In this document: piece by piece, positions 9,717-63,190 of the stretch
How the letters are laid out: each line of letters starts with the position of its first letter
How positions within the stretch are numbered: position 1 is the stretch's first letter
From: Microthyrium microscopicum
Taxonomy: Eukaryota
DNA: 64,000 nucleotides
Direction of reading: 5' to 3'
Assembly (NCBI GenBank): GCA_010405405.1
Contig: MU004235.1
Span: 1,254,538 to 1,318,537, forward strand
Position numbers and translations under genes: made by a program
Notes under the pieces: generated by a model
The model's database searches: none
Told to the model about the DNA's origin: nothing
Seen by the model: only the letters and a program-made list of their open reading frames with translations

Positions 9717-9978
9717 TTTGAATAGTATTTGATACAAACTATTTGGCTTTCAAACCTTGGGATTCAATCAATTGACAAGGGTGGGCGCGAAGGAATCTGG
9801 AAGGGAAAGCGTTGTTTTCATTCACCACCAAGCGTCTCACAACTAAATCGTACTTATGCCACACTCTGTTATCCTCCAGTAGGAATAACGGGAATTATGC
9901 GGCTTTGAACGGCTATTGGACTTTTAACTCTGGGGAAACCGCATCTCGGGAACAGCCGAATGGCTGCTGCGCTGCTGA

Positions 9979-9984
9979 CCGAGG
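9979..9984. promoter_or_regulatory. CCGAGG (FarA/FarB/CTF1-type core site) in the divergent ligase/SDR promoter
   Basis: Exact hexamer between two PTS1-like genes; a 6-mer can occur by chance. Confidence 0.35.
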
Positions 9985-10122
9985 GGTCGAGTGGGTAAAG
10001 TCGTCCTTGGAATCAGGACTGGACCCATAAGTCGCAGTTCCAAGGCTTTATCGCGGATCTAAAAACGAAAAAAATATCCCAATCGATTGTACGCAAAGGC
10101 ATCTACTATCCCTCATTTCAGC

Positions 10123-11107
10123 ATGTCAGAAATACGAGATTTCCAGTCCATGTTCAGACTTGATGGCAAGATTGCACTTGTCACCGGTGGTGAGACAGGT
10201 AGCTTCTCTAGTTGATTTGAGCTGATCTATCTAGGATCCAGAGGTCTTGGACTACATACTGCAACCGCCTTCCTCTTAGCTGGGGCAAAAAAGGTCTTCA
10301 TAACCGCTCGGAAGCTAGAGGGAGCAGAAGGAATCAATCAAGCTGTCGAAAAGCTCAACAAGCTCGCCAACATCAAGGGCACGGCGGTGGGAATAGCTGC
10401 AAATGTTGCCCAAACCGATCAAATTGAGAAACTCGTCGCCAAAGTAAAAGAAACAGAAGATCATCTGGATATATTGGTCTGCAACGCTGGAGCCACATGG
10501 GGAGGACCTTTCGAGCCAACCCCCGATTCCTCTACTATAAAGGTCTTGGACTTGAACGTAAGAGGAGTCTTCAACCTCGCAAGATTGTAAGTGACCAGTC
10601 CTCATATTCGTCTGTGATACTAAACTAGTTCAGATTTACACCATTATTAGCAGCCGGTGGAACACCTCGCGACCCTTCTAGAATCGTTATTGTCAGTTCC
10701 ACTGCCGGCAGTAACGTTGCACATATCGGTGATCACGGAACAATAATGTACTCAGTCTCAAAAGCCGCTGCTCACCATATGACCAGAAACTTGGCTATGG
10801 AGTTGGGCCCTAGAAACATCACTACAAATACCGTGGCCCCAGGTTTCTTTCCGTCAAAGTTAGCCAACGGATTGATAGAGATTTTGGGGGGAGAGCAAGA
10901 ACTCAATGATAGCAACCCCAGGCGCAGACTTGGCGAGGCTGAAGACATTGTCGGTGTAATGGTCTATCTTTGCTCTCCTGCCGCATCATATATGTAAGTT
11001 AAGGTACCCCCTCACCACTACTGATGCTAACAGATCATAGAAACGGAGAAGACATCGCTGTCGATGGCGGAATGAGATATGCATCTGGTCGACATTCCAA
11101 GATATAG
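10123..11107 (+). CDS. Classical short-chain dehydrogenase/reductase (RhlG/FabG-like), 4 exons; C-terminus -SKI (PTS1-like)
   Basis: TGGSRGLG across intron 1, CNAG, YSVSK catalytic motif, APGFFPS; ends GRHSKI*. Confidence 0.9.
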
Positions 11108-12033
11108 TCACTGTCCACACATAGCCTTAATTGTGATATTTTTTGCCCATCTCGTGTATATACTACAAACTAATGAGCATAACAATCTCTTTCAATCGCC
11201 TACTTGTTCTTATGTCGTGATTTCTCCACAACCCAGTTTCTCGATTTGTCCCAAACTCGCCTGAGCATAGGTCGTCCTATCCGACAAATCTAGAATTATA
11301 CAAATTTCAATTATCTACCCTAATTGAGCCATTGGTCGAAGCCAAAATCCTAGTGCAACTTAGCTGCAAGAGGCGCATATATGTCTAAGCTACATTTGCG
11401 TAGGCCATGATCCTGCGTTTGCCTTCTGAACCTCACTACCAGCCGTAGGGTCCAGATTGGCAAACCGTGAGCTTTGTTTCTTTTAGCTTCCGCTTGACTC
11501 ATGTAAGAGCTAGAGCAACTCATCAACTCAGGAACCAAGGTTTTGAGATTACCCCATAGTTAACGGAAGATCATCTACATTTGTCCTTCTACGAGGCAAG
11601 CTGACCACGAGACGCAAATTCTACAACGTCTTAATTCCCTCTAGCTTTTTACAACACGACCAAGCAGCTGTTCTTTGATTATTTGCATAAGAAGCCAACT
11701 TGATAGATATCCTAATTAGTGCCATGTAATATGTTTTGACTGATTCAAAGCGAGCGCAAATCTTTCGCGTTACCTGTAAAGACCTCGCATAAACGATTCC
11801 GCTCTGCCAGCCTTTGTATTTTGTCCTTCAACCTGCCCCTCTTTATAAAAGTCAGCACACCTGGCAATGAAACTCCGATTATTGGTGCCGGAATCCGATA
11901 TCTAATATTTGGCGGTGTCACAGGGACAAAGACTAGATTGCATAAAACTGCTGCGGTGCTTCTGCAATCCATCATTTGATAAACCACACCTCCAAACCAT
12001 AAGATTGCAAACTTACTCAACACGATTATTGTC

Positions 12034-13669
12034 ATGGGTATCTTCTATCCAGCAGCTGTGGCAGCTGTAGTGCTGGGCACCGTATACTCCATCTGGACGG
12101 TCATATATCGTTTATACTTTGATCCTTTGGCGAAATATCCCGGTCCTCTTCTAAACCGAATCTCTCCTATTCCTTCTATCATATCTTTGCTCAAAGGCCG
12201 CATTGCTTTAGATGTCAAACGCTGGCATGATCAATATGGCCCAGTGATCCGAGTCACTCCTACCGAGCTGTCATTCAATAGCGTAGCAGCATGGGAAGAC
12301 ATTTATGGTCATAGGCAAGGCCTCAAGAACATGCACAAAGGTACGAAGATTTCCAGTGTCTTCTTGAATTTGAGAGCCAGAGAACCAGTTGCTAATTAAA
12401 AGAATCTAGACCCTGTTCACGTTGGATCGGTTGCGCCTCTTGCCGGAGTATCGACGTTGACAATGGCGAATGATGATGATCATGCACGACAAAGACGTGC
12501 TTTGGCATATGCTTTCTCGAATAAAGCGTTGCTAGAACAAGAGCACATTGTCCAGGGATATGTTGACTTGTTGCTCGAAAAGATGACAGCTAAGCAAACT
12601 GCTGGCGTAGACGTGAACCTTGTGGATTACCTCAACTATACGACTTTCGATATTATCGGCGACCTTGCATTCGGTGAGCCATTTGGCTGCCTCTCAGCTG
12701 AGATGTTTCATGATTGGGTCTCTCTTGTTTTCGAAACCATCAAAGTTGGCGCACTGGAACAAGCAACAAGACGTCTGGCAACAGCCGGAGGATCGTTTCA
12801 GACATTTTTGGTAAACCGAATCCCACAGTACATGAGAGACTTGCGAGTGAGCCACTTGACTCGAAGCCGAGAAAAGGTTCTGAAGAGACTAGCACAAAAG
12901 GATCTTGAGCATCGCGACTTTATCTGGTACATCTTGCAACAACAAAAAAGACATGATCTCAAGCAAGACGAGATCATTGTCAATGGTGCTCTTTTCATCG
13001 TTGCAGGTAGCGAAACCACGGCCAACCTACTTTCTGGACTCTTTGCTAGACTCATCTGGAACCCTGACAAGTACGCGAAATTAGTCGAGGAACTCCGCTC
13101 CAACATCAAAGATCCAGCGGACCTGGTTAGCGAGAAACTCAAAGAACTTCCGTACATGAATGCTTGTATCGAGGAGGGATTGAGAATTCACCCACCTGTA
13201 CCAGTCGGTCTACTGCGAACTGTTCCCAAAGGAGGTGCCTATATTGATGGAAATTTTGTTGTTGAAGGCACTTCAGTCGCTGTGAACTCATGGGCGGCTT
13301 GCCACAATCCTGTCAACTTCAAAGACTGCGACAGCTTCATACCGGAGCGCTGGATTGATGAGAAATATGCCAGTGATCAAAAGAAGGCCATGCAGCCATT
13401 CAGTCTAGGTCCAAGAGGTTGCATTGGACGCCATCTTAGCTACATGGAGATGAGAGTCATTCTCGGACGCCTTCTATGGAACTTTGACATTGTCAGCACT
13501 GATGGAGCCTGGAAGTGGAACCCGGAAGGAGAGTTGAAGCATATGCGGGCTTTCAACACCTGGGAAAAGCCGGAGTTGATGATCAAACTGTAAGTCATCC
13601 TTTGTGGATCGGATGTTTGAAGCGAAACTAACACATGTCTCTAGTGTGCCAGTTGTTCACAATAAGTGA
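12034..13669 (+). CDS. Cytochrome P450 (CYP60/CYP65-like), 3 exons
   Basis: N-terminal TM, AGSETT, EEGLR, PERW, FSLGPRGCIG; introns about 12341-12410 and 13590-13644. Confidence 0.92.
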
Positions 13670-14266
13670 GAAACGAGAAATGAATACTGTGATGGTAAAC
13701 ATGCCATATTGAATTCCTGAGGTCTTCATCGCATGTGCTAGAGAAGGCTGACACTGAGGATCTGATAGCTACCTAATTCTAAATTACGTGCTTGGCCTCT
13801 AAGCTACCTATGTAGAATAACATCTTCTTAACAGATTAAATAATCAACTATATCAATATCAAATCAACGGCAGTAAAATTAACAGTGGTTCTATCTTGAG
13901 AGTACCCGGATATAACGCGGAGAAGATAAATGTTATACAAGTCAGTCACAGCTACCACAGCCTTGCGGCATGATTCAATCATGAGAATCGTCTGGAACAT
14001 CAAATCACCCACAAATTGAGGAAAACCACCCCGCTTTGCCTATGACACTATATGTGGACCTGCAGTGATGATCAGATGCTCTTCAACCCATGGGGAGAAG
14101 GAATCTGGAGTCAAGGCGGAAAAGTAGTCCCGTCTTGGACTCCAGCTATTGTCAAATAATAGGCTGCAGGTGAGTTGTATATGATTATTTTTGTGGTACA
14201 AAAGTGAGAAAAAATCAACACGACTGCTTAACTTTTACTATTTCAATTGTCAATCAATCTTTTATC

Positions 14267-15841
14267 ATGGCGTTTCCATTCTCAAAGTCAAAGCTCCCAG
14301 AGCAGCTGTTCATCAATAACGAATATGTCAACGCCAAAGGCACAAAGAAGCTCACGCTCATAAACCCTCGAGATGGATCCCTAGTCTCGAAAAACTGCCC
14401 GATTGCAGACGAACAAGATGTAAACATTGCTGTTGCAGCTGCAGAGAAGGCACTACCCGCATGGAAGAAGATGGCCGATACAGAACGACGAAATATATTG
14501 GCCAAGTTTGCAGATCTGATAGAGAAGCATTCGGAAGAGCTATCTGAGCTCACACGAATCACACTTGGAGCTCCATATGGGGCTTTTGGAAAGTTTGAGG
14601 TCGGATTATGCGCAGAGGTTGGTCGATTCGTGAGAAATTGGGACATTTGAGTACTGATAACCGCTTTAGGCTTTTCGGTATTACTCTGGTTGGATCGGAA
14701 AGCTTGGTGGTGAATCATGGCCCGCACAAGATGGATTCATGAAGATTGTCCGGGTTGAACCTTTGGGTGTGACTGCTGGAATTGCTCCATGGAACGGTCC
14801 AGTTGGAACAGTGGGTCTAAAAGCTGCACCATCACTAGCAGCTGGCAACTGTTTCATTCTGAAGCCTTCAGAGAAAACACCATATGGCTCCCTCGCCCTT
14901 GGACATCTTGCCAAAGAGGCAGGTCTCCCGCCAGGCGTATTTCAAGTTCTCAGTGGAGATGGACCGACCACGGGGGCGCTTCTTGCTAGTCACATGAGAA
15001 TCCGTAAGATCAGTTTCACCGGAAGTATACCTACTGGCAAGAAAATCCAAGAAATGGCAGCCAAGAGTAACCTCAAGAGAGTCACACTGGAACTCGGAGG
15101 AAAATCTCCAGCTGTCATCTTTGACGATGCCAATCTCGAAAATGCAGTCTCCTGGACTGCCAACAATATCACCGCAAACACTGGACAAGTGTGCTTCGCC
15201 GCTAGCCGAGTCTACGTACAGGAAGGGATCTACGATAAGTTCATTGCAGGCTACAAACAAGCCATGGAAGACAAGAGAAATGCAGTGGGCGACCCGGAAA
15301 AAAAGGAGACTACCATTGGTCCACTGGTTGATGAAGCCCAGTTCAAGCGCGTGTCTGGCTTCATTGAACGAGGTCAAAAAGGTCAGGGCAAGCTACTAGT
15401 GGGCGGGCAAAGAATTGGAGATACTGTAAGTCGACCTCGCAGTGCTGTGATAAATTCGAAAGGTGCTAATCAAGTTAGGGATTCTTCATTGAGCCAACCG
15501 TTTTCGTCGACGTCGAGGAGAACTCTGAAATCCACAACGAAGAAATTTTCGGGCCAGTCTCTGTGGTTAGGAAGTTTAAAACAGAAGAGGAGGTTATGAA
15601 GATATCTAATGATGTCGAATTTGGCCTGATGGCGGGCGTCTTCTCTCAGGATATCAACAAGGCATTGAGAGTTGCAGCTGAATTCGAGGCTGGTATGGTG
15701 GGTGTCAACTGCATCTCAGCCATGTTCTTGGGACAGCCATTTGGAGGGTACAAGCAATCTGGACTTGGAAGAGAGGGAGGAAAGGAAGGCATGCTCGCCT
15801 GGATGGACCACAAGACCGTGTTCATCAACACCACATACTAA
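14267..15841 (+). CDS. Aldehyde dehydrogenase, 3 exons
   Basis: PWN, KPSEKT, FTGS, LELGGKSP, GQVCFA, PFGGYKQSG. Confidence 0.93.
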
Positions 15842-15939
15842 GCGTAATAATTCCAGTGCAGTTATCAGATACTTAGTCATAACTCAGATCTTTCATAAAT
15901 ATTGGCACAAGGGGACTAAGCTACTGTATGATCTAGGCC

Positions 15940-16689
15940 TCAGAAGAATGCTTTCTTCTCGCCAAACGACTTCAAATTCTTATATTCGGCCGCCACTCCA
16001 GTGTCTTTCAAAGAAGAAATGTCAACCTCCTTGTTGAACTCCATAACCACAAGAAATTTGGGAGGCGCTTTCAGCCCTCCCTCACCTGGGGCTAGTCTAT
16101 TCTGTCTGGAAAAATAGTTCTTGTACAAGCTCACCCTAATAGCTTCTTCCTGCAAAGGAAGCTTCTTGATAATTGATTCTGCCTTGCTTGCGTCGTCTCC
16201 CTCCACATCAAAGCAAAGAGTGACTACATGGCTGGGTACGGCTGTGCACATTTAGACTCAAGATCTGGACAACATACAATCGCACTAACCTGCGCGTTTC
16301 GCTTCTCCTTTCAAGTGTTGGACATTGGAGTAGTAGCGAGTATCAAAGTCTGCGAAATTGAAAATGGGCCCGCCGTCAGGTAGAAGGTTGTCATTGACAG
16401 GGATAGATCTGAATGCATCGGAGGTCAAAAACGACATGTCTTCCATAGGATATAGAGCTAAATAAGGACGTTCAACCTTTCCTGGAGTGACTGTCTCATA
16501 GCGAAAGGCTGATTTGATTCCTTGAGGTTTGGTGGCGAAGATATCGGCGATATGTACGTCCTCATACCATTGAGCAAACAACGCTGGTGGCATGGATTTG
16601 GCATCCGTGATTTTGGAGTTCACGTAGAGAATTCCTGGCCCAGAAGTGGAGGCAATGTTGTAGTTCGGAAATTCAGCTGAGCCAACCAT
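15940..16689 (-). CDS. Hypothetical protein, EthD-like dimeric alpha/beta barrel candidate, 2 exons
   Basis: WYEDVHIADI and RPYLALY motifs; intron 16242-16289 joins two ORFs in frame. Confidence 0.6.
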
Positions 16690-17277
16690 GATGAGGATTT
16701 GATGAAGAACTTGAAGATGGCAGTTGAAAGGATAACACAGATCTTGGAAATTGAAAGTGGTTGATCAATGAATTTGATGACTTTCGCTGTAAGTTTGTAA
16801 TGCAAGGCTTTTGTACTCCTGAATTGAAATTCCAGTATTACTTGACATATGTTCCTTCATGTCATGGGAAGCAACTAGGTTTATTGACCAAAGTAGCCGT
16901 TACCCGTCCCGGCCAAACACGTTGAATTTCTCCAGTTGCTTGTTCCTCGTACCCCAGATTATTGGATAGGTCTTTTACTATTAAACTCGGTAGCTTCAAG
17001 CCGATGTTGGAAAGGGTTTACAAGATGGAAACCTTACCCGGTCCAGGTATGGGCCACTTTTCCGCCTCTTGGCCAACCACCACTAAACACAACATGTGAA
17101 ACTAAATCAACATTTATGATGAGATCAATACTTGATACATACAACTAACTAGATACTGCCGCGTTATCCGTTTTTTTCGGCCATACTTGAGTCAAATATC
17201 GCTGTAACACCAAATTTGTCGACACATCCTATGAAGATCAATCACAAAAATCAAAACCGAAAACCAGAACCTGAAAA

Positions 17278-18521
17278 ATGAGTTCAGCTCCGAAAGTCGC
17301 TTTGGTGTTTGGTGCCAGTGGGGTAACAGGATGGAGTTTTGTCAATGAGATATTGAATGACTACCCCAAAAAGGGCATCTGGGGAAAGGTATATGCGCTT
17401 ACAAACAGACCCTTGAAAGAAGAGACCACCATTTGGCCCAAAGATGACAGGCTTGAAATCGTGTCTGGGATTGATCTTCTCAAAGGCAGCCAAGAAGACT
17501 TGGAGAAAGAGCTTAAGAGTAAAATCAAGGATATATCAAAAGTCACACACGTCTATTATCTTGGTAAGCTCACCAGCGAAATTTTAAAGAAAAGAAAGAA
17601 GCTAAATGTTTCGCAGCTTACAAGGCAAACCCTCATGACCTCAAGGCAGAATTAGACGATGCCGTCGCCATGTGGAGTCGCTCAACTATTGCCATGGACC
17701 ATATTAGCCCCAGTCTCGAATTCGTTATCCTCCAAACCGGCGCCAAAATGTATGGCTGCCATCTTCTCGAGAACCATCCCACTGACTACATCCACCCACC
17801 ACTTCACGAGAATCTCCCGCGACTCAAACAGCCTTATCACGATCAACTCTTCTACCACCCACAGCTGGACTGGGCTCACGATTACGCCAAAGGCAAGGCG
17901 TGGAAATGGTGCGACACACGCCCCGACATTATCATCGGCTTCCACCCGACGCCCAATTTTTACAGTCTCGGGCAAGTCCTCGGCATCTACATGACGCTCT
18001 TCCGAGCTGTTGAAGGCGCTGGCGCAGAGTGCCCATGGCCCGGCACTAAACAAAGTTGGGTAGCAAAGAGCCACGACTCTAGCAGTGATATGATTGCGCG
18101 TCAGACACTACATCTGTCACTGACAATTGATGACAAGTACAACGGCACAGGATTCAATGTTGGAGATGCAAAGCAATGGTATACATGGGAAACCAAGTGG
18201 CCGGCAATCTGCAAGTATTTCGGACTCAAGGGCGTCGGACCGGAAAGCGGGAAGGAGGGCACGGAGGTGAGAGCGTATATCAAGGAACATTTGGCGGAGT
18301 GGAAGAAGATAGAGAAGGAGCATGGCCTACAATCTGGGTTTGCGGACAGCGAGATGGTGATCCCTGGGTTTGAGTTCTTTTTGATCACGCAGTTCGATTT
18401 CGATCGTCAGTATGATATGACCAAGATGTATGATGTTGCTGGGTTCAAGGAGGAGCGAACTCCAGCGCAGACTTGGGGTGGAGTTTTCGACAGGATGAGA
18501 AAGGCAAAGATCATTCCATGA
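17278..18521 (+). CDS. SirQ-like / PRISE-family NAD(P)-dependent reductase, 2 exons
   Basis: VFGASGVTGW, LQTGAKMY, LFYHPQLD, TRPDIIIGF; intron about 17564-17616. Confidence 0.85.
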
Positions 18522-46856: not shown

Positions 46857-47935
46857 CTATTCTAGCACGTACTTGATTCCAGCAATGAGCTTATCGTGGT
46901 ATTCCTTCTGGGCATCTTTCAGGCAAGGCGCAGGAAACGTCCAGTAATAATGTGGATAACCCTTGAACTCATCGAACTTCACCTCTCCTCCATTGGCTTT
47001 GATTTCATCTATCATCAATCTCGCATCGTCCCGCAGAGTGTCTTGCCCGCAGTAAGTAATATATGTGCGTGGAAGCTCAGCCAACCTATCGTGAAGCAAT
47101 GGGTTTGCATATTTGTCTTTTGCAGGAGAGCCATAAGCATCTGTTATAGGAAGTCATCAGCCAGTTGTGAGACGGTCAGACTGAATGATTCTTACCCCAA
47201 AAAGCGCGCATGGCACTGTTAGTATTGACGGTATGTTCGGCGTGCTCATCATAAGACGTATACTTGCTTCGCCACTTTTCTGGCACAGCATCGGGATGAA
47301 TAAGGCAAGGTACTTCGCCAACGATTCCGACAACTTCATCTTTTCGTCCGTCATCGATAAGTCTTAGAGCAAGACCAAAGGAAGATCCACCTCCAGCTGA
47401 TGCACCGGCAATGAAAGCCTTTCCAGGGGTTCCTCCAAGACTTTCCGAGTTCTTCACGGTCCAAGTGAAGGCATTCAGGCAGTCATCCAAGCCGGCAGGG
47501 TATTTGGCTACGGTCGACAGTCGATAGTCAACAGCGACCACTACAACTTGGGCCCGTTTGCAGATAACTCTACAGTCGGGATCATCTGCTTCGAGGTCGC
47601 CCATCGCCCAGCCTCCGCCATGGATATAAAAACATATGGGATTGCTTCCCTTTTTATGGTTTGGCGGAGTATAGATGCGGACTTTTAATCCTCCTTCAAT
47701 CTCCCGATTTTCTACCTCGACTTGTTCCGGAGTTGGCCATGTTGTTATGTTCGCCATCAACAATTGTCCAAGATTATCCCAGTCTTTAAAACAATTTTCA
47801 ACGGTTGGGCCATGTAGGAGAGGTCTTGCACCAAGGAACTTTTCGAACTTCCCAAAATGTTAGCACCATAATTCCCTCATTGCTCCAATCTTACCATACC
47901 TCAACCCATGGGGCTGCAAAGCCCTCTGCTGCCAT
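46857..47935 (-). CDS. Hormone-sensitive-lipase family esterase (alpha/beta hydrolase fold 3)
   Basis: HGGGW oxyanion motif, GASAG nucleophile, DTLRDD, GYPHY. Confidence 0.9.
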
Positions 47936-48199
47936 GTTCAGTTTTTAAAGATGCGAAACTGGGCAACTGCCGTATTGCCAACGTAGCCTCGCGACATTTC
48001 ATATATGCCGAGTTCCAGACTAGAGGTCGGGAACTCCATCATTTCAAACTCCAGCAATGACCAGTGAACCGTGAGATAATCCACAGATATAAATTATGAT
48101 TGGCTACAATCGGCTAGTTTTAGCCTTTGCCTCAGCTTTCTTAGTGTTGCGGGTGAGCTCTGCATGTCTGGGGTTAGCTGCGGAGAATGTCTTCCCACT

Positions 48200-48205
48200 C
48201 CTCGG
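48200..48205. promoter_or_regulatory. CCTCGG (FarA/FarB-type core site) in the divergent esterase/ACAD promoter
   Basis: Exact hexamer; could be chance. Confidence 0.3.
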
Positions 48206-48322
48206 CCTACCAGTAGCTTCACGGTTAATTCTACAACACAAAGGTTTGGATTTGCGCTGCTTCAAGCAATATAACCTAGAGCTTTGAAGAAACAATCACT
48301 CTTTTGCCAAAATAAACCAAAC

Positions 48323-49718
48323 ATGGATCGAAATCACCCAGCATTTGCACGACTTCCACCATGGGTCCAGTCCAAGATACGACCTCAAGCAGTTGAGACA
48401 ATCAAGAAAGTTTGGGATTGGGTGGAAACAGAATGTGTTCCTGCTGAGCCAATTATGAAAGCTCAACTAGCCAATGATCGATGGAAAACACCGCAATTGA
48501 TGCACGATTTGCGAGCGAAAGCAAAGGCAGCCGGTTTATTCAATTTATTTCTCCCAAACCATTTCAAAGAAAGTCCTGGTCTCACCAATCTTGAATATGG
48601 TTGCTGTGCAGAAATCATGGGACGCTGCTATTGGGCTGCCCAGGTTGGTTCATTCTTCGTACTGAGATTCATTTACTAACAAGTCAAAGACTATGAACTG
48701 CCAAGCGCCAGAGACAGGAAACATCGAGCTGCTCGCCAAATTCTGTACCGACGAACAAAAAGCGAAATGGTTGAAGCCATGTATGGAAGGAACAATGTCT
48801 TCGGCTTACAGTATGACTGAGCCTGATCGCGCTTCTTCTGATGCCACCAATATTGGATGCCGCATGGAGATCACTGACACCGAAGTCATTATCAATGGTC
48901 GCAAACTTTATGGCAATGCCCAATGGAATGAAGACTTGGGAATTTATATCCTCATGGGATGTTCCGACCCAAACAATCCCAATCCATGGAACCGTCATAC
49001 AACTGTTGTCGTTCCTGCCAGAGCTCCTGGCCTCACCATGAAGAGAAACATCACCATCATGGGATACGACCACGCCCCTGAAGGCCACGGCGAATACGTA
49101 TATGAAAACGTCAGAGTGCCCAAGGAAAACATCATTCTTGGTCCTGGCCGTGCCTTCGAAATCGCGCAGGGCAGACTTGGACCTGGACGAATTCATCATG
49201 CCATGCGCCTCATTGGACAAACAGAGAGAGCTTACGAGCTGGCTTTGATCAGATGCACCGACCCAATCAAGAAGCCCCGAGGCAAGTTGATCGGTGAGTT
49301 CGATAGCAATATTGAACGCATCGCAACCATGCGATTAGAGCTTGACAGTATGCGACAAGTTGTCCTTAACGCAGCCGATACTATGGATTTGTATGGTGGC
49401 AAAGCCGCCAAATATGTCATCGCACAAAGCAAGATCTTGATCCCGAAGATGGCAGAAGAAATTATCAATGAATGTATGCAAATGTTTGGTGGACAAGGTT
49501 TGACACAGCACACAGCATTGCCAGAGATGTGGACTTATGCTCGATTTGTTCGTGTTGCAGACGGTCCTGATTCTGCTCATAAGCATCAGGTTGGAAGAGA
49601 TCAGATCAAGACAGCTCCAAACATTCGGGAGAGGCACAAGAAGTATCAGCAGATCCACAAGCAATTGTGCGAGACTCATGGTGTGGAGTATGTTCCATAT
49701 GGAGCAATAGATTATTAA
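48323..49718 (+). CDS. Acyl-CoA dehydrogenase, ACAD10/ACAD11 (LvaC)-type, 2 exons
   Basis: GLTNLEY, NCQAPETGNIE, MTEP..ASSDATNI, AQGRLGPGRIHHAMR, RVADGPD. Confidence 0.92.
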
Positions 49719-49806
49719 ACACTGTCTACGTTGGACAATACGAGTTTGTAGTATGTAGCATTAGGCGTTTATGGAGAGCAATTTCATTCATTTTCATCGA
49801 CTCTGA

Positions 49807-51239
49807 TCAGAACTGAGGTATAATGCCGGCCGACTTGAATCGGTCAAATGCCGTGTACCAAGCATCCTTAAAAGTTGTGCTGAGCTGTTCCTTATCTGAC
49901 CAGACTTCATTGAACTTTGACATGTCTAGATGCCGATCAAAGTTGAACATGGTCATGATAAAATATGGGAAACCCCCAAACGTCCTCTGGTTGCCCACAC
50001 GGCCCTTGACCAACTTGTATTTTTCTTCAACCTTTTGCCATTCAGAAGCATTTTCCTCCAGATATTGGGTGGGTTGCGGCCCAGATCCACCAGCGGGTGG
50101 TGCTACTCCTTTCAATCCAAAATACGAGCAAATCACTGGCCATTTTTCTGACCATGAACTAGGTTCGCTGACCGCAGTGTTGAAGCGCTGTCCGTCACCA
50201 CATTTCTTAGGATTGAGGGATGCGTAGATACTGAAACAAGCAATCTGGTCTTGAGGACTATCATTGCTTAGAATCTTCCAAGATTCAGAAGTTCCTGGGA
50301 AAGCCACTTCCGCATCTTTTCCATTATGGTAGCGGTAAAGCGAGAGATATAGACCTATGTCGTTGTTAGAACTCGCACATATCGCTCACACTGCCTCCTA
50401 GTCTTACCAAGAATCTGAGGTAGGCAATAGATGTTGTTATTTGGGACAAACCCAATGATGACATCCGGACTGAATCCGTTAGAATGTTAAGCATTAAATG
50501 AGCAAATTTCTTACATGACCTCGCACCAGGACCAGCTCTTGCCTTTCGATGCTTTGGTGAGATAGTCGAGTTGGTCGTAGTAGAACATTTCCGATGCGTA
50601 TGGTTCAGGGATGCGCGGGAGGCTTTCTGCCATTGGCAATTGTTCTGGAAAAGGAAATTTTTCAATGAGGTGAACCCCGTATGCCTGGAAGTATTGTTAG
50701 TTCTCTTCTGCTTCAAGAATGATCTTGATACTTACCTTGGTGCCAGTTGGAAGGACTACAAAGGTCAAGTTTTTTGACAAATTCTCAATGGTTTTCACAG
50801 CTCTATCTATGAGAGTTACGTTGATCTCGCATTCTTTCTGCCAAATGTCAGACACAACAATTCACGGGACGACCAGTTTTGCATGCCTTGGGGTCGGGAT
50901 CCATCACATATGCTTTTCTTGTTAGCTTTTTGTCTCCATTCTTGAAAATGGTTTCTTACCGAAGAAAAACACATGCGACACTGTGTCAATATCCTTGACT
51001 TTCTCCTTAAGGTCCTTTTCAAGTCCTGCCTGTCCACCATCGTGCATCAAATTTGCGGTGGTCAACAACAACTTGTCGCTTTTGGGCCATAGCGTTTCTT
51101 CATGCTTCAATGGTCGGTTTGTTAGAGCTGTGATCCTGGAGAAGTCATTTGGCGAAGGATAGCCTTTCAAAAGCTGGTTGACAATTGCCCATCCTGTAAT
51201 GCCGCTTGCACCAAATATCAAGGCGTGGTTTCCGGTCAT
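49807..51239 (-). CDS. Second SirQ-like / PRISE-family reductase, multi-exon
   Basis: IFGASGITGW, MFYYDQLD, FNFDRHLDMSK; clearly homologous to the 17278-18521 gene. Confidence 0.85.
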
Positions 51240-51773
51240 TTTGTTCTCAGTTTCAAGTTTATAAAATGTAAATATATAGCTTGTTTATTAGTAGCACGAG
51301 AATTGATGGTTTTATGGTCTCCTATGGCGAAATGTATTCCGATGTTGGTCAACCTCACCCGTGTCTCATCCTCCTCACTATGTCACTGCACCCGGGACCT
51401 ACCAAGACTCCAGAAAATATTCAAATTCGACAGGGAACTAGTCGATCCTGGCCACATGTGATCTGAAGCCTTCCTGCTGATTTCTGTAAAGTTTTTGAGG
51501 AGGCAGCTTTGATAGGTGCATGTGGGATTAGCGCGGCTATTGACACCCGGCTTCTAGACAATCTCAAGGTTCGGATGCTTTGCAGTCTACAAAGCAACTC
51601 GGAAATGGACCTTGGCCGAGCCTAGTCCAGACCGAGAAGCTACTGTCCTTTAATGATGGTAATCGATCGGCTTATACCGGTAAAACACCATTTACATGAC
51701 CTGAAATACATACAACCACAGCCTCACCTGAATCACAGCAGCTTCAACTGACAAACAATTGACCAAATTCATA

Positions 51774-52930
51774 ATGGCAGGACCTATTCGACAACCGATT
51801 GATCTCAAGAAGCTAGAGAAATATCTCAACAAAAACGTTCCTGAAATCAAAACTCCCTTGGACATCAAGCAGGTATGCCGGTAGGCTCAAGTACTGCGCT
51901 GGAGCTAACAGGTTAACAGTTTGGATTTGGACAATCCAATCCCACCTACCTACTCACTGCCACCGATGGAAAGAAATACGTTCTACGTAAGAAGCCACCA
52001 GGAAAATTGATCTCCCAAACCGCACATAAAGTCGATCGCGAATATCGCATAATACACGCCTTGAGGAATACAGATGTTCCGGTTCCTAAGGCATACTGCC
52101 TTTGCATGGACGATTCGATAGTGGGATCTGCATTCTACGTTATGGAATTTTTGGACGGCAGGATATTTGAAGAGCCACAGATAGACAATGTCTCGCCAGA
52201 AGAAAGGAATGCACTTTGGCGTGCCGCCATCGACACGCTCGCCAAATTACATTCAGTCAACCCCAAGAGTGTAGGCCTAGAGAAGTTCGGCAAGCCTACT
52301 GGCTTCTACGATCGACAAATAGCAACCTTCACCACCTTGGGTAACAATCAAGGAGCAGTAAAGGATGTCGAGTCCGGAGAACTGGTTGGCCCGATTCCTC
52401 ACATGCAAGACTTTGTTACCTTCTTCAAAAACAAGAAAAGCCAGCCCAAGGATCGCACATCGTTAGTCCATGGAGATTTCAAGATCGATAATCTTGTCTT
52501 TCACAAAACGGAACCCAGAGTGATTGGCATCCTTGACTGGGAGATAGCGACTATTGGCCATCCGCTCTCCGATCTTTCCTGTCTGCTAGAACCATACACA
52601 ATCTCTGCCAGAACCAAGGAGCAGCGGCGAAACTCTCGCAAAGCTTTTACACCACCACATCTACTAGCAGGTCTACCAACGAGAGAAGAATGTATCGAGC
52701 TATATGCTGCGTCAGCTGGTTGGGACCCACGCAAGGATATCCCTTGGGGAACGGCTTTTGCGATGTTCCGTAATTGCATCATTTTCCAGGGTATTGCAGC
52801 ACGATATGCCACAAGACAGGCCAGCAGTGCCCAAGCTAAAGAGGTTGGACAGGAAGTCTATCCCGTGGCTGAAATATGCAGAGGATTGGTTGAGGAGGCT
52901 CGGGGTCAAGTTGGAAGCGCATTATTATAG
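51774..52930 (+). CDS. Aminoglycoside-phosphotransferase-fold kinase, ACAD10/11 N-terminal (LvaA)-type, 2 exons
   Basis: [62 protein letters not shown]. Confidence 0.92.
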
Positions 52931-54489: not shown

Positions 54490-56570
54490 AGGAAGCGCCC
54501 AAGATACCTAAAGAAAGATATCGGACTATTATACATATGCTCTGTTTAAGGTTCTGAACAAGATTTAAGACGTCCGTAGTGGAAATAAAGCGTCTGGTAC
54601 TTGTAAAGTAGCATTCAAAGATGCTTGTAGGCTCATGTTAGGGTGCGAACTTCCTACACTTACTCTGGAAGCGCTCAAGACACCTGAAGAAAGATATCGG
54701 ACTATTATACATATGCTCTATTGAAGGTTCTAAACAAGATTTCAGACATCCGTAATAGAAATATAGAGTCCGGTATTGGTAAAGTAGAACTCAAAGGTAG
54801 GCTCATTTTACTAGAAGCGCCCCAAACACTTGAAGAAAGATATCGGACTAGTACATATATGCTTTATCCAACGTTATGAACGAGATTTACGACGTCCGTA
54901 GTGGAAATAAAGTGTCCGGTAACCGTATAGTGGCATTTGAAGGTGGGCTCAATCTAGAGAGCTTCCTATACGCTGGGAGCGCCCTAAATACCTACAGAAA
55001 TATATCGGACTATTATATATATGATCTAGCTAACGGTGTAAGCGGATTTAAGAAGTCCGCAATGAAAACAAAGCGTCCGGTAATTGTACAGTAGCATTTG
55101 AAGGTGAGCTCAATCCATGAATTTTCAGCGAAGTTTCCATACGCAGGGAGCGCCACAAATAACCAAAACAAGGTATCGGACTAACGTTTTCATATTTGAT
55201 CTAACAGTATGAACAAATGTCGAGACGTCCGGCAAAAACAGTGATATTATAGAGCTTTTCCCTGGTAGTTGGGTTGGTGTCCTACTCTCCTGGTTTAAGC
55301 AGGAGAGACATTTCTTCGTAGTCGCCAGGAAATGTTCCCAGAGTCTTGCAAAATTTATCGGACTCTCGGATATATAACTGACTTGGTATTCCTTACTAAG
55401 TGAAGTCGGTCCGAAATAAAGAAAGATCTTATAGAGATTTGTAGAAGGTCGAGTACCTCGTTAATTGCCAGTGGCTTTTGATGGAAGATGCTGCATGCAT
55501 TTTCTCTGGCTGGTAAAACTGGCTCCCAATCCAGATGCTGCTTGATCGCCAAATGATTCTCCAATCGGACTTTCAAAATATATACAACTTTGCAATCCTT
55601 ATCGGAAAAACTTAGTCCGATAGAAAGAAAGACCTTGTGGCGATTCGTGGGAGGTCGAGTACTTGCACTTTCACTCTTACAGCGCGCCGTATCTTGTTGG
55701 CTGCAATTGGCTGGTACGCTGGCTCCCAATCCAGATGCTGCTTGATCGCCAAAGGATTTTCCAATCGGACTTTCAAAATATATACAACTTTGCAATCCTT
55801 ATCAGAAAATCTTAGTCCGATAGAAAGAAAGACCTTGTGGCGATTCATGGGAGGTCGAGTACTTACACTTTCACTCTTACAGCGCGCCGTATCTTGTTGG
55901 CTGCAATTGGCTGGTACGCTGGCTCCCAATTCAGTTATTGCTTGATCGCCAAATAGTTTTTCTATCGGACTTTCAAAATGTGTATAGCTTGGCAATCTGT
56001 ACTAGATAGAAATAATCCGATAGAAGGAAAGACCTTGTGGCGATTCAAGGGAGGTCGAGTACCTTGTTGGCTGGCTCCATTTTGGTGGGAGGTGCATTTT
56101 CCTTCGTTGGTACTGTAACGCTTAATTGGTCAATAGTTTTCTATCGGACTTTCAAAATATGTATAGCTTGGGAATCCTTACAGGGTAGAATTGGTCCGAT
56201 AGAAATAAACATGAATGTGGCGGATTTCAGTCAAGTTCTTCGTTGGTTGGCTTTTGGGGAGATGCATTTTTAGCTGGACACGCCGGAGTTCAAAATGTTG
56301 CGGACATTTGACTGCCAAGGACTTTTTTCAATCGGACTGCGAAATATCTACGCAGTTTTACATTGCCTACATAATGCATTTAGTCCGAAATAAATCAAGC
56401 TCGTAGATGGGTGTGGTTCCGCAATTCCATACAGTTTTGTACTCTACATTGGCGTGTTTGGAAAAAATCGCCCACTATTTCTCCTTAACTCTAGAGATAT
56501 TTTCCGGACCGCCGGAGATGCATCCAATTCTACGTTCGTTACGAGATGCTCTAGGTCCGACTCGTCCGAA
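54490..56570. repeat. Array of 12 diverged units, each containing CGGAC-N44/45-(G/A)TCCG; period 146-207 bp
   Basis: CGGAC starts at 54522, 54698, 54844, 55006, 55177, 55359, 55566, 55766, 55966, 56145, 56333 and 56505; includes near-identical 200-bp duplications at about 55520-55980. Confidence 0.9.
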
Positions 56571-56654
56571 ACAAAAGAAAGCATGCTGCGTTGTTGTAGT
56601 GGCGTTGAAAGATTAGCTATTTCATATTTCTCCTCTTTCGACTACGAAATCAAA

Positions 56655-58960
56655 CTACAACTTCGCTTCAACTCCAAGCCCAGTAAGTATCTCCTCTACC
56701 GCCTGATTTATAACTACTCCAGTCTTCTGTACCTGTGCAATGTTAGCGAGTAATCAAGGTGGAAAATGATCAAGATTACCAGTGGTTGCTGCATCATCAA
56801 ATAGTGCGTCCCTTCTACTACTATAGTCTGCACCGTAGATCCGAGCAGCTTCTCCCATCCATTGGGTCCAAAAGAGCTCTTTTCAGCAGCTCCCCAGCCT
56901 GCGCCAGGCATTCCACCATCTTTGAAGCGTTGCGGCATTGATCCACCCTTTTTCATGCATGCGAGTAACTCTTTTGCAGCCGTAGTGTTAATGCTTTGCA
57001 TCTCAAAGTTGGTGTAGCGTGCTAGAATAAGAAAGGTCTTGAACGGAACAATTTCTTGATGCCATGCCTTGCCACGGTATTTGCACAACATGTTGTGGCT
57101 CATGACAATATTCTGCCTACTTTTCAATGGGACATCTATGCCTCTCACCTGATTGCTCGCTGTCACCAGCTCCAAGTTCACCTGCTCCGCACCGAACATG
57201 ATTGATGGACTTGCTGAGTCGATTATGATGAGACCGATTACTTTTCTCCCAGCCAAAGAAAGAAGTCTTGAGACTTCATAAGCCATGGTGCCACCAAGTG
57301 ACCATCCACCAAGCAGGTAAGGGCCGTGAGGACGAATCCGAATAATCTCTTCCAAAATCATTGGCGCAACCTCTTCAATGGTGTGGTCATCGGAGGGATT
57401 GTCTACAAATGGAGACGGTAGAGCATACACCGGAATATGAGAGTGGAACTGCGGTAGCTGCACGTATGAAGTGGCGGATCCTTCTCCGTCGGCAAGAAGG
57501 AAAAAAGCTGGTTGCTGGGATTCTGAGGTTCCCTGCAGAAGGAAGGAATACACCTTGGGCTCCAACCGCCCAGGCTGTTCGGGTGAAACTGTAGAACGCA
57601 TAGGCTGGACTACCGACGGAAACATCTTCTCCAACTTCTCTTTCATAGCGGTCAAGGTTGGATATTCACGAAAGCACGTTGTAGGAAGTTCAGTACCTGT
57701 TTGCTCTTTGAGCACTCGTAAAATAACTACGGCTTGCATCGAGCTTAGCCCAAGTTCCTCGAAAGTTTTGTCTGGAACTCCGGCTTTGAAGAGATCTTGG
57801 ACCTTTATCTGAATTTGTCTGGAGAGTGTATCGACAAAGACTTTGAATGGATCCCCTGTGGCAGCGTCGACTTTGGAAGCTCGATTGCGATCTTGTGGTG
57901 CCTCTATGTCTTGAGACATTTCAAGTTCCATATCAAGTTCAATCCCCATTTTCATGAGCATGGCAGCACATTGAAAGAATGTGGTTCTCGAGTCCTGTAC
58001 ATCGTCGATGGTGTGCAAAATGTATTTCTGATCCACTTCCAAAGTTGCTCTCACAAAGCTGCAACATGCTGATCCGGGACCCAGTTCAAGCCACACAGCC
58101 TCCTCCTCCGGCTTTGCCCAACTTCTGGTAGCTTTAAGTGCTTCGGAGAATTGCACAGGCACTCTTTCCACGGAAGCAGTATACTCGTAAGTAATAATTT
58201 CCGCTTCGGTCACTACTTTGCCCAAGACTGTTGAGGCGATAGGAATCCTTGGTCGATTGAAAGTCAGAAGTTTTGCAGTTTTTCGAATTTCTTCCATTGC
58301 TGGCTCCAGCTGCCGGGTGTGGTAAGCATATTGCATTGGCAATTCGACGGTTTCAATGCGATTTGCCATTAGAGCTGCTCGTAATCGACGAATCTTTCCG
58401 GTTGGTCCGCCCACAACAATGCTCTTTTCGGAGTTGTAACAACAGACGTCGCAGAAGTCCCATTTGTGTCCTACGACCCGAATGACCGTGTCCACAGTTG
58501 CTCGTATGGCGAGCATAGCCTCGTCGTATGGTTCGCACCTACGTTCGATTATTTGACTTTGTCTACCGACAAAGAAGAACGTGTCGGTCAAGGATAAGAC
58601 GCCAGAGACACACAGAGCTGCAATGGAGCCTATGCTGTGTCCGATTACCATATCAGGTACCAATCCACGTCTTTCCAATTCCATAGCAAGAGCAACCTCC
58701 ATGGCAACAGTTCCGATTTTGACGACGATGTCATCAGGAGGTAACGAATCAGCCCCTATAAGCCATTTAATGAATGAAGGCAATCTCAACGACGTCACAA
58801 TCGTTTCCATCTCATCCAGAGATGCTCGAAAGGAAGTCGAGACTTGATACAGTTCTTTGGCCATCCCAGCATGATGAGAACCGAGGCCAGAAAACATGAA
58901 AACGACTCTGCTACCTTTGGCTGCAGCAAAAAGTGTCTTGCCAACTACAGGTGAAGACAT
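56655..58960 (-). CDS. KS-less PKS-derived tridomain acyltransferase-ACP-thioesterase; predicted C-terminus -AKL
   Basis: AT: FSGLGS, GHSIG, YAYHT, WLELGP; ACP: FEELGLSS; TE: LADGEGSATSY, GGWSLGG, GTHYLMM. Intron 56733-56779 (GTAATC..GCTAAC..CAG) gives ...LGVEAKL*. Confidence 0.85.
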
Positions 58961-59977
58961 TATCCAAAATTGAAGGGTTGATCAGCCAAGCTATTACTCT
59001 GCGTATCAGAAAGGACAAATCTTGAAACACAGTCTGATATCGTTCTTTGCTTTAAGAAAATTGTTACTGTTTCTCGTTAGTGAAGAGGATTCAAGCCAAG
59101 TTCAATGACATGATACCAAAAGGTTCGAGCTGCTAACATATAACTGGGCCAACAAACTGCGTTAGAGATGATGACGAGAGTGAAACCGGTCTACCATTAT
59201 TATTGTATGTACTGCTATTTTCGGGCACTCTCAAATATGTGGGCTTCCCCGAGGAGCTTTCACATTTACAACTCTCGCCTAGGTCAAGTTTGACCCTGTT
59301 GCATTCGCAGATCTTTTCTGCAAGGTGACACCATCTGATAGATGTGATGTGCTGGCCAACTGATAGACAAAATAAATCGCGTAACCCCATCGACTTCGAT
59401 AGCTCCTACACAACACGCTCTAGTATTAAGTACCTAGGTAATTTATTTATGATATATGGCGTCTAGATTAAGTATTTTATCGAGTGCGATAGAAATTATA
59501 ACACCTCTTCTTTAAAAGCGTTCGTAGGAGCCAGCGAAGTTGATGGATGAACGCCAGTTATTTTGTCATGCGGTTGCTGGCGAACAAACTGCAAAGGTCG
59601 TACAGAAATGATAAGCTTCACGGAGTGGAATCGGGCACTGAGATCTGCAAGCGCCTGCATATGCGTCTGCATTAGTACTCAAGTCCAGCTGTATCGGGTT
59701 TTCACTTGCGCAAAGTGATAATTTCTTTGTTCTCTGCATCGAGATACATAATATTTCCTGATTTACAGCCTTGGAATGATTGATCAACACTCAGCACTCG
59801 GACCATCCGCCTACCGTAGGCTATGCCTGGGCATGGGTTGGGTTGGGTATGGTATGGGTTTCGTAAGTTATTTTCAAAAGGGCCGTCGCACGCTATAGAG
59901 TAGTACTCAAGAAACTCAGATCTTTCCAAGGTTGACCCCGTGGTCGCGCTCATTGACTTAATCAATTCATTGATATC

Positions 59978-61651
59978 ATGATATCTCTTGTCGATCCAGG
60001 CGATGTCTTCTACTTCCTGCTTTGCAGTTTTGGGGTCTTTTTCACAATTAAGCAAGCGTTTGTTCAGATTCGCAGGCGTAAAATAAGGAAACGTCTTGGC
60101 CTTTTCAAAGCAAAGTCTTTACCTCTGCTCGACCCTTTTTTTGGAACAGATCTCAGCGTTACTATCTTCAACCAGATCAGGAGGTCTGAGTTGCTCGAGG
60201 GACTTGATAAAAGATTTCTTCGTTTCGGAAACACGCATTCTTTCCAGCTGGGTCTAACATCGATTGTTGCAACATGCGATCCCGACAATATCAAAACAAT
60301 TACAATGAACGCTATTGATTTCCCTGTTGGCGATGTCCGAAGAAAGGGGTTATCAATTTTACATGGTCAAGGTATATTCGCTGTCGAAGGATCCGACTGG
60401 CACCGATCACGCAGTGCTCTTCGTCCCAGTTTTACCAAAGGAAAACACGATGATGTTGCTGTTCTCGAAACTCACTTCCAAGATATGTTAAATCAGATTG
60501 CTCTAAGCAATTATTCCGTTGACATGCAAGATGTATACCACCGATTCACAATGAACACAGCAACCCAGTATTTCTTTGGTACATCACCTCGTGAAAGTGG
60601 TCAAGGGCGGCAGATTGAAAGGTTGCTAGAAAGCATTGACTATGTGAACCAGACGGTTTACTTGGCCCTTGTCTTTGGCAGTCATTCGCCTATATCACTT
60701 TGGAGATGGTGGCAAACTAAAAAGAAGATGAGGGTGATTCACGCTTTTGTTGATCAGCACGTCAAACGGGTATTGAGCCCAGACTTTAAATCTTACGAAG
60801 TCAACAACCGTCGTTACATCTTCCTAGACGAGCTTTCCAAAAGTGAATCGGGCAAAGACCCTATTTTTCTTCGAGACCAGGTTTTAACCAGTATGCTTGG
60901 TGGAAAAGATACCACGTAAGATCAGCCACTCTTTCTGGATTTATTTTTGACGTAGTTCCTAGGGCATCTCTTTTGACCCACGTTACCTTTGAACTAGCTA
61001 GAAATCCGATCATTTGGGCTAAGCTTCGAGTCGAAATCGGAAAGCTAGACTTGGAGTTGGTTGATATGAAAACGATCAGAAACCTCAAATACGTGCGATT
61101 CTGTCTATTAGAAGGTAAGTGATATAAACGTGGAGTGTTTCATGAGCTAAATCCTACTTGAAGCTTTGCGTTTGTACACCGTTGTGCCTATAAACATGAG
61201 AAGTGCAAGTGCGGACACGATGTTACCAGTTGGTGGAGGAGTAGATGGCAACAACCCAATTCAGATACCTAAGAATACAATACTCTGGCTGGGTATGTTC
61301 TCGATGCATCGTCGAAAAGACATATGGGGAGATGATGCAGATCAATTCAACCCGGATCGATGGGAGAATCTAGATCCAGGACCGGCATTCGTTCCTTTCG
61401 GGTCAGGACCTCGAACATGTCTTGGTCGTAAGTACAGCATTACTCTTGAAGAATTAATTACTCACATTTACTCAGAGCAATTCGCTTTTAATGAAGCCTC
61501 ATTTGCTCTTACAAGATTAGTGCAGACATTTCATGAACTTGAGCCCCTTTCCGATGCACCTTGGAAGGAGAAGGTTGCGATTACTCTTGGTTCAGGCAAC
61601 GGGTGTAAGATCAGGTTACATAGGTACACAAGTTCGGAGTTTGAACAATGA
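59978..61651 (+). CDS. Cytochrome P450, CYP52-like (alkane/fatty-acid omega-hydroxylase clan), 4 exons
   Basis: TCDPDNIK, GIFAVEGSDWHRSRSALRPSF, LRDQVL..GKDTT, DTMLPVGGG, FNPDRW, FGSGPRTCLG. Confidence 0.88.
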
Positions 61652-61804: not shown

Positions 61805-63190
61805 TCAAATCCAAGAAACTCTTTGTGGAAAAGGTGGCATAGTTAAGAACATGGAAACCAAATATTGAGGATAGCCGCGCCGACCAAAATACCATTCGAT
61901 CTGATGCCGGACTCCGATTTTTCTTTTCTCAATGTCTTCGATGTCCTTACAAGTTTCAAGAAAGAGCGGGAAGTGAGCTTGATCGTCGACGCTCATCGAG
62001 TTCCAAGCGTCGATAGTTTTGGTGTCTTCAAAGACATAAGATGTTCCACCGGCAATTTTGAAAATGCGAGCTATTGGATGTAGATCCGTCGAATTCCAGT
62101 CTATACTCTTCCACTTCAGCACTGGTGTCCATGGTAGAGCGCGCATTTTCATTGCCTTCTCCCAAATGTCACCAAATGATCGAACCGCCCTCTGTCCTGC
62201 TACGGCATGGATACACCCGCGAGTACGCAGTGCAGTGTGCACAAGGATCCGATTCACAACCACATCGACGGGAACTTCGTCAATTTTGCTCTGAGCTGCA
62301 GGATCATCAAAAGGTGATGCCCAGGTCATGCTCATTGACGTGCAAAGCACGCAGGCAGCAAGCATACCAGTTGCTGGCGCTGATCCTCGGATCTCATAGT
62401 AGGGATAAGGCTCTCTAAGGGCAGGCCCAATAATAGAGGGCCTCACAATCAACAGCTGATCCACGTTGGCCGAGAAGTATTCAGTAAGTATTCTCTCTGT
62501 AAGGTTTTTGGCGTATGAGTAAGGGTACGGGAAATTCGCTTTTTCAAAAGCAGTTGTGGAACCGGTTGCCAATAGTTCTTCGAGTTCCTGCTCTGGCTCA
62601 ACAGGAGAAAGGGGATATATCTTCTCACTTATTGTAGTTTCAACATACTCGTTGACCATATGCAGGTGCGCGTTTGAATAGGCCGTTGAGATGTAAACGA
62701 ATCGATCAACTCTCGGAGAGGCGATAGCCAGCTTTGCTAATTGAAGAGTTGGATATATGACGCTTTTTGCTATCTTCGGCAATGGATGAATGAGATTGAT
62801 AGACGATGCTGTATGGATAATGATGGAGCATTCCGATAAGGCTTGAAGAGCGTCCTGATTGAGACCTAAGCTTTGCTGGGTAAGGTCTCCATTTACAGCG
62901 TAGATGCGCCTACTATTGCGCAATCGTTCCCACGTTTGCAATGGCAAAGCTGATTGAAGCTGGCTCCACAGCCGTCTGCTTTCAAATTAGCACGTTCAAG
63001 ATCTGCTGTACAAGGAGAATTTCCCGTAGACTTACTGCTCCCCCCCTCGAACCAATGCAACGACCTTTTCACATGGCGTTGACATGACTAACTTGCAAAG
63101 CAGAGCGCATCCAACAAACCCTGTTGCCCCAGTCAGAAACACGTTACGACCCCGATAGTAAGAAGTGTTGAGCTGTGCCATGTGCTCCAT
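61805..63190 (-). CDS. Fatty acyl-CoA reductase (male sterility 2 / NAD_binding_4 family), 2 exons
   Basis: FLTGATGFVG, IIHTASSI, YISTAY, YSYAK, IVRPSII, VPVDVVVN; intron about 62976-63035. Confidence 0.85.

Follow-up and report, generated by a model that had tools for sequence, protein, structure and literature searches.

A Microthyrium microscopicum protein derived from a non-reducing polyketide synthase but lacking the ketosynthase, with an altered malonyl pocket and a predicted peroxisomal address

Inspection of a 64,000-nucleotide stretch of the genome of the dothideomycete fungus Microthyrium microscopicum (assembly GCA_010405405.1, contig MU004235.1, positions 1,254,538 to 1,318,537; hereafter the window, numbered from its first letter) reveals an intact two-exon gene on the minus strand, 58960..56655, whose 752-aa product consists of an acyltransferase (AT), an acyl carrier protein (ACP) and a thioesterase (TE). 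Judged by its sequence, the product is a fungal non-reducing polyketide synthase (NR-PKS) minus the starter unit transacylase (SAT) and ketosynthase (KS) at the front and minus ~400 residues of the product template (PT) region mid-protein, which has since undergone fast change. Comparison with an orthologue indicates that the gene has been kept under purifying selection, and the AT has exchanged the residues with which related enzymes hold malonyl groups. The function that we favour, and to which we give about an even chance, is that of a three-station acyl relay, retained by selection, that would reside in peroxisomes and handle a non-malonyl acyl group.

Results

An intact gene for AT, ACP and TE domains

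The coding sequence, TAG included (56655..58960, minus strand), translates into a protein that matches P0001 (NCBI protein) letter for letter. Its stop-to-stop frame covers 56714..58981 on the minus strand (755 aa), where the ATG at 58960 stands 7 codons past an in-frame stop. Exon 1 (58960..56780) encodes 727 aa, with the final residues ...MMQQPL, and is followed by a 47-nt intron (56779..56733, GTAATC...CTAAC...CACAG). Exon 2 (56732..56655) contributes the 25 codons VQKTGVVINQAVEEILTGLGVEAKL-TAG, ending ...GLGVEAKL.

A Pfam search of the 752-aa protein returned three domains and nothing else. Acyl_transf_1 occupies residues 20-308 (E 2e-34; 58037..58903, minus strand), PP-binding residues 378-440 (E 9e-7; 57641..57829, minus strand) and Thioesterase residues 487-724 (E 8.5e-20; 56789..57502, minus strand), where the AT and TE assignments are joined by alignments to the malonyl-CoA acyltransferase (MAT) and TE of PksA and all three by the column counts given below. 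Sixteen residues lie ahead of the AT, and the AT and ACP are spaced by ~65 residues.

The missing domains were sought in the surrounding DNA. When 11 full-length NR-PKSs (2061-2225 aa) were compared with the 64-kb window by tblastn, matches were confined to 56735-58942 and to the AT (~870-1230), ACP (~1600-1700) and TE (~1740-2100) parts of the queries; the SAT, KS and PT parts matched the window at E<1 in 0 of the 11. This search covers 5 kb upstream and 56 kb downstream of the gene, and no KS appears in either flank, nor does Pfam find a PKS domain in any of the 31 other window open reading frames (ORFs) of at least 150 aa. Transcript data speak to the 5' side of the gene, where no minus-strand splice joint occurs in the 425 nt before the ATG and an RNA contig that crosses the start codon follows the genome sequence continuously as far as 59385. 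Beyond the ATG lies a 1-kb spacer and then a divergent cytochrome P450 gene. That is to say, the protein shares MAT, ACP and TE homology with NR-PKSs and has neither the KS nor the SAT and PT that belong to that class. An earlier sequence-only reading of this DNA had described an intact ORF of about 750 aa opening directly at the AT, with SAT, KS and PT absent, and would have fallen with the discovery of an upstream KS exon; the start at 58960, the stop at 56655, the domain search, tblastn and the RNA joints all bear it out.

Descent from a fungal NR-PKS

Among solved structures the best match is PksA (8cg4), which aligns over AT 960-1250 and TE 1915-2032 at E 5e-62, with CTB1 next. Among the matches listed, full-length fungal NR-PKSs are 31-36% identical to the protein, and those with names are alb1-like or uncharacterised. 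To place the AT, a tree was built from 57 domains, namely P0001, its orthologue P0002, 47 NR-PKS ATs and 8 bacterial ATs, by a quick search with support from the Shimodaira-Hasegawa-like approximate likelihood ratio test (SH-aLRT) only, such that most inner forks are unresolved. P0001 and P0002 fall inside the fungal NR-PKS group, and the bacterial ATs, that of the AT-PCP-TE protein P0003 among them, split off at 99 SH-aLRT. The stem that carries P0001 and P0002 measures 1.5 changes per column versus a median tip of 0.73. Because the bacterial ATs form a separate branch, the fungal AT-ACP-TE arrangement arose independently from an NR-PKS. Horizontal transfer of a bacterial AT-ACP-TE gene was considered as a source and rejected on the same placement. 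Taken with the PksA match over both AT and TE, the tree supports the previously proposed PKS-remnant origin, with an NR-PKS as the parent.

P0002 was recovered by a word-index search (52 hits) as a singleton of 760 aa on a 4620-bp JGI/IMG contig. It is 66% identical to P0001 and has the same three-domain make-up, so that the homolog survey proposed with the sequence-only reading does yield a protein of this architecture. No other member of ~750 aa appears among those 52 hits, which also include the bacterial P0003 at 25% identity, or among 38 hits obtained with residues 345-752. In an exhaustive HMMER search P0001 forms its own 50% cluster, followed by giant PKSs and NR-PKSs at no more than 36% identity, and no further ~750-aa member is found among the best 150 of 52572 hits. 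Shorter database proteins running from AT to TE were checked as candidate intermediates; all 25 measure 1158-1392 aa and 22 carry a PT-type Pfam domain, which marks them as pieces of NR-PKSs, not PT-less forms. Of two metagenome scans, the one with P0002 as the query yielded no relative among 71 pattern matches, and the one with the alignment yielded 79 loci, all at no more than 30% identity over the AT only, which are bacterial-type PKS ATs.

Substitutions between the orthologues avoid conserved columns

Each alignment was analyzed for whether the differences between P0001 and P0002 depend on how conserved a position is in NR-PKSs, an analysis that stands in for dN/dS. Columns at or above 80% in NR-PKSs were called conserved and columns below 40% variable, and identity between the orthologues was compared by Fisher test. 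For the AT, 62 of 75 conserved columns are identical versus 67 of 132 variable columns (p 5.8e-6). For the ACP-TE region the counts are 50 of 54 and 95 of 177, respectively (p 4.2e-8). Over 727 codons neither frame is broken, and at ~34% amino-acid divergence the two differ in alignment by in-frame gaps only. The standard code allows roughly 23 nonsense versus 392 missense single-base changes, and on that ratio ~15 stops would be expected if the ~250 amino-acid differences were neutral. Because the differences avoid conserved columns, purifying selection, and not drift, is indicated as what has kept the gene. Neutral evolution, one of the outcomes on which the earlier proposal would have failed, is thus not the pattern found.

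Catalytic residues persist while the malonyl pocket is altered

Catalytic and pocket positions were counted over 47 NR-PKS ATs and 37 NR-PKS ACP-TE regions. The protein reads G25-L26-G27, GHS109IGS, R133-Q134 (Ser+24 and Ser+25) and YAYH214 in its AT, LGLS406-S407 in its ACP, and GGWS554LGG, D581 and H719 in its TE. In the AT, the MAT-type nucleophile of the GHSxG motif, Ser109 (58634-58636; S in 46/47), and the catalytic His214 (58319-58321; H in 47/47) are kept, as is Arg266 (46/47). The phosphopantetheine attachment residue Ser407 (57740-57742) and the TE triad of Ser554 (57299-57301), Asp581 (57218-57220) and His719 (56804-56806) are present in both orthologues, at columns where the NR-PKS regions agree in 37/37 for the first three and in 33/37 for His719. 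All 7 catalytic residues are therefore intact in P0001 and P0002.

This contrasts with the acyl pocket, where near-invariant NR-PKS residues have given way to others that are the same in P0001 and P0002. The Gln of GQG at position 26 (46/47) is Leu, giving GLG; Glu at position 112 (47/47) is Ser, turning GHSLGE into GHSxGS; and Arg at position 134, 25 residues past the nucleophile (46/47), is Gln. Around the catalytic His, Phe at position 213 (45/47) is Tyr, so that FH becomes YH, and Ser at position 215 (45/47) is Thr, and position 264, Gln (35/47) or His (11/47) in NR-PKSs, is Val. The pair expected of FabD and MAT enzymes, a carboxylate-binding Arg at Ser+25 and the Gln of GQG, which we take to be R117 and Q11 in FabD numbering, is replaced here by Q134 and L26. 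Arg133 lies immediately before Gln134 (58559-58564 together), and the alignment with PksA and the NR-PKS ATs is ungapped from the VG anchor to the next helix. Since Ser+24 is Lys in 17/47 and Arg in 9/47 NR-PKS ATs (26/47 together), an Arg at this position is ordinary, and Arg133 is not a shifted stand-in for the lost one. By these columns the AT has lost the residues predicted to hold the malonyl carboxylate, and the pocket changes exceed chance. In the MAT of animal fatty acid synthase (FAS), the equivalent Arg, R606, binds the extender carboxyl and its loss alters specificity, as described in PMC6954729.

The sequence-only reading had noted these features from the letters of the one gene. 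Its retained AT, ACP and TE catalytic motifs are upheld by the column counts, and its GLG and Ser+25 Gln gain weight from the near-invariance of both positions and from their identity in P0002. The Arg that it pointed out at Ser+24 is present, with the qualification that it is a normal NR-PKS neighbour and no peculiarity of this protein.

Transcripts support the -AKL end and reveal antisense RNA

Transcript evidence was drawn from one run, X1, labelled guessed RNA and taken as RNA because its contigs skip introns. The contigs are unstranded with minor variants dropped, and depths are not read as expression level. One contig skips the last intron of the gene (56733..56779, minus strand, GT..AG) through a joint 56729->56777 that skips 47 nt, with CT..AC on the plus strand at cut +3. 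Because this intron is skipped in RNA, the reading frame of the mature message ends in Ala-Lys-Leu codons (56658..56666, minus strand) with the TAG next (56655-56657), as the sequence-only reading had predicted. The -AKL terminus fits the [SAC][KRH][LM] class of type 1 peroxisomal targeting signals (PTS1). Ends of this class occur in 10 of 1644 stop-terminated window frames of at least 25 aa (~0.6%), and at this frequency a chance -AKL is unlikely.

The minus-strand-spliced contig (record 2) spans 55901 to 58021. Downstream of the stop it lacks a further 61-nt intron (56121..56181, minus strand; joint 56120->56182, CT..AC), placed in a 3' untranslated region (UTR) of at least 750 nt (55901-56654). 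An intron past the stop marks messages for nonsense-mediated decay in some fungi. The DNA 3' of the gene also holds two tandem arrays, one at 55507-56062 (200-nt units, 2.8 copies, 90% matches) and one at 54668-55115 (146-161-nt units, ~1.9 copies). The first of these lies within the transcribed 3' region, where one of the RNA contigs "goes back 131".

Joints of the opposite orientation lie in the contigs over the stretch that codes for the AT and over the 5' flank. Plus-strand RNA at 58021..59385 (record 3) is spliced at three GT..AG introns, 58022-58084, 58187-58235 and 58401-58454 (63, 49 and 54 nt). Because excising these segments would break an AT frame that aligns without gaps to PksA, the joints are assigned to antisense RNA. 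The joined antisense RNA contains no ATG-started ORF longer than 74 aa and ends short of the P450 transcript start at 59938; it may regulate the AT-ACP-TE gene or the P450 gene. The depth of the bin 58311-58611 (185.6) equals the antisense contig share exactly, and by this arithmetic no contig covers 58401-58454 unspliced. Separately, an RNA contig departs from the genome at 59581, and its remaining 255 letters have no match in the window, which may reflect a chimera or a junction to a distant locus.

Neighbouring genes

The divergent P450 gene (59978..61651, plus strand) has four exons separated by introns 60916-60962, 61111-61159 and 61428-61475, assigned from Pfam and RNA joints within a transcript contig at 59938-61749; against the PDB its product finds distant CYP3A matches only, a protein search limited to lengths of 549-2000 aa finds none, and its N-terminal motifs may be CYP52-like. 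Next to it is a stand-alone gene for a fatty-acyl-CoA-reductase-like protein (61805..63190, minus strand; Pfam NAD_binding_4, ORFs), with an intron at 62976-63035 supported by an RNA joint. This protein has no match in the PDB, and the Atlas clusters closest to it consist of fatty acyl-CoA reductases, among them an Ascomycota cluster named 'Fatty acyl-CoA reductase family protein' with a score of 0.98. The P450 and reductase-like neighbours suggest a lipid substrate; a functional link of the three genes is conjecture. The window is otherwise rich in lipid and oxidoreductase genes by Pfam, in the stretches 5262-18521 and 47176-52930. These encode a flavin monooxygenase (FMO)-like protein, an AMP-binding ligase, a second P450, an aldehyde dehydrogenase and two PRISE-type reductases, together with an Abhydrolase_3 esterase, an acyl-CoA dehydrogenase and an APH-type kinase.

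Discussion

A predicted acyl relay

In the reading that we favour, the AT, through Ser109 and His214, would draw a non-carboxylated acyl group from acyl-CoA and load it onto the phosphopantetheine arm that Ser407 carries. The TE, through Ser554, Asp581 and His719, would then unload the acyl group. Hydrolysis is one way in which it could do so; transfer to an acceptor, an alcohol or an amine, is considered the likelier one because the device is so elaborate. Pex5 would import the folded holo-protein into peroxisomes, an acyl-CoA-rich compartment. The acceptor is where the neighbouring genes may enter. We regard it as a long shot, though a specific one, that the protein is a peroxisomal carrier-dependent acyl-CoA:alcohol/amine acyltransferase that would, for example, esterify reductase-made fatty alcohols or P450-made hydroxy-acids, a synthase of the wax-ester or estolide type.

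Several observations weigh against a working peroxisomal relay. An AT-ACP-TE protein that did nothing but hydrolyze would be an oddly elaborate thioesterase, and the family comprises two known members among the matches listed. The carrier motif was flagged in the sequence-only reading as LGLSS in place of LGxDS, and rightly so: the residue ahead of the attachment Ser is Ser in M. microscopicum versus Asp in 37/37 NR-PKS ACPs and in P0002. Over 527 carrier domains from the proteins gathered in this analysis, the position is Asp in 477 and Ser in 9, P0001 and 8 others, such that the SS pair looks unusual, not disqualifying. Over the 5' AT-coding part, RNA contigs have antisense-type joints only, and no contig represents a full-length sense mRNA. 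At the C-terminus, a Glu stands at position -4, ahead of AKL, and an acidic residue there is not favourable for PTS1 strength. The P0002 gene call runs through the last intron in the wrong frame, leaving its C-terminus unreadable.

Alternative readings

The best surviving alternative, which we nevertheless consider improbable, is that the protein is half of a split synthase, acting in trans with a KS protein encoded elsewhere and supplying it with starter unit, carrier and release. NR-PKS MAT, ACP and TE domains normally serve a KS, the KS search covered the 64-kb window alone, and other truncated PKS-like fungal proteins exist, such as the 430-aa ACP-TE protein P0229 of Aspergillus chevalieri. 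However, with its malonyl Arg lost, the AT cannot supply extender units, and both orthologues have lost two Trp whose conservation across NR-PKS AT regions is 94-98%, where a role in KS contact would be a guess. The flanks inspected by tblastn contain no KS, and a PTS1 would part the protein from cytosolic synthases.

Decay is doubtful to a somewhat greater degree. Under this explanation the gene would be a functionless NR-PKS remnant that is open and transcribed by chance. The very long stem, the loss of the DS motif in M. microscopicum, the antisense RNA that dominates the 5' part, the intron in the 3' UTR and the two-member family among the matches listed are each consistent with such a fate. 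Set against these are the two Fisher tests, the 7/7 catalytic residues intact in both proteins, the identity of the altered pocket residues between them, and 727 codons open in both where drift would be expected to leave stops.

There is also a slight chance that sense transcription in the sampled condition mainly starts inside the gene and gives a shorter RNA that encodes ACP-TE only, with the AT part mostly antisense. The minus-strand-spliced contig ends at 58021 and the contigs upstream of it have plus-strand introns, unspliced cover is missing at 58401-58454 from the depth bins, and other fungi have annotated ACP-TE proteins that stand alone (P0229 and P0240). But absence is unreadable in contigs that are unstranded and stripped of minor variants, and the AT part is clearly constrained and must therefore have been translated at some time.

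That the AT still uses malonyl-CoA, as a transferase or hydrolase, is very unlikely: the MAT fold, the Ser/His dyad and the Arg next door at +24 would suit it, but that Arg normally sits beside the true Arg and does not replace it, the alignment is gapless through the region, and five more near-invariant pocket positions are changed.

Relation to known systems

The acyl relay that we favour would resemble several described systems in part. Fungal NR-PKSs (SAT-KS-MAT-PT-ACP-TE; PksA 8cg4, CTB1 6fij) share homologous MAT, ACP and TE domains and the post-AT linker, which is kept here. In contrast to them, the M. microscopicum protein has no SAT, KS or PT, its stretch from AT to ACP is shorter by ~400 residues, the malonyl positions are replaced and -AKL is added. 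Bacterial AT-ACP-TE tridomain proteins fall into Atlas clusters of 124, mostly Actinomycetota, and 52, mostly Myxococcota, and have the same domain order at 783-836 aa. One such protein, P0003 (783 aa), is 25% identical, lies on the separate AT branch (99 SH-aLRT) and, unlike the fungal protein, keeps GQGSQ and GHSIGEY. No function assigned to either bacterial cluster is known to us, although no search was aimed at this point.

ATs without the carboxylate-binding Arg handle monocarboxylic acyl groups and pass them to a carrier. In having no such Arg, the AT described here resembles the R606 variants of FAS MAT (PMC6954729). It also resembles the ATs of the loading AT-ACP didomains that modular PKSs contain. 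Both of these hand their acyl group on to a KS, whereas here the TE alone is downstream.

Enzymes with PTS signals that draw on peroxisomal acyl-CoA pools for acyl transfer serve fungal secondary metabolism in penicillin synthesis (penicillin acyltransferase), siderophore synthesis (SidF, SidH and SidI) and AK-toxin synthesis (AKT proteins). To our knowledge their folds are unrelated to AT-ACP-TE and none depends on a carrier protein.

Other KS-less fungal proteins differ in composition. The ACP-TE proteins P0229 (430 aa) and P0240 (483 aa) have no AT and are 29% identical to the C-terminal half of the M. microscopicum protein; they may themselves be remnants of PKSs that lost the KS, or else gene models that were split. 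A KS-less 'ACP-MT-Te' PKS-like entry is separately annotated in a table for Aspergillus niger (PMC12368960). Our literature search turned up no fungal AT-ACP-TE protein described as standing alone, and the AT-ACP-TE strings examined belonged to KS-AT-ACP-TE.

Significance

As a rule, iterative PKSs of fungi are regarded as indivisible units. This gene has shed its condensing half along with the product template, and the loading, carrier and release domains have been kept under selection, with the pocket refitted and a predicted organelle address added. Were the product inert, the gene would still document the decay of a PKS gene. If acyl transfer is its true activity, it would be an acyltransferase of a new and compact kind and would offer engineers a scaffold ready for use, and we know of no other carrier-protein-dependent step in fungal peroxisomes, nor do the literature listings contain such a case, so that this would be the first. 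If the wax-ester or estolide reading holds, a leaf-surface fungus would have built such a synthase from PKS parts.

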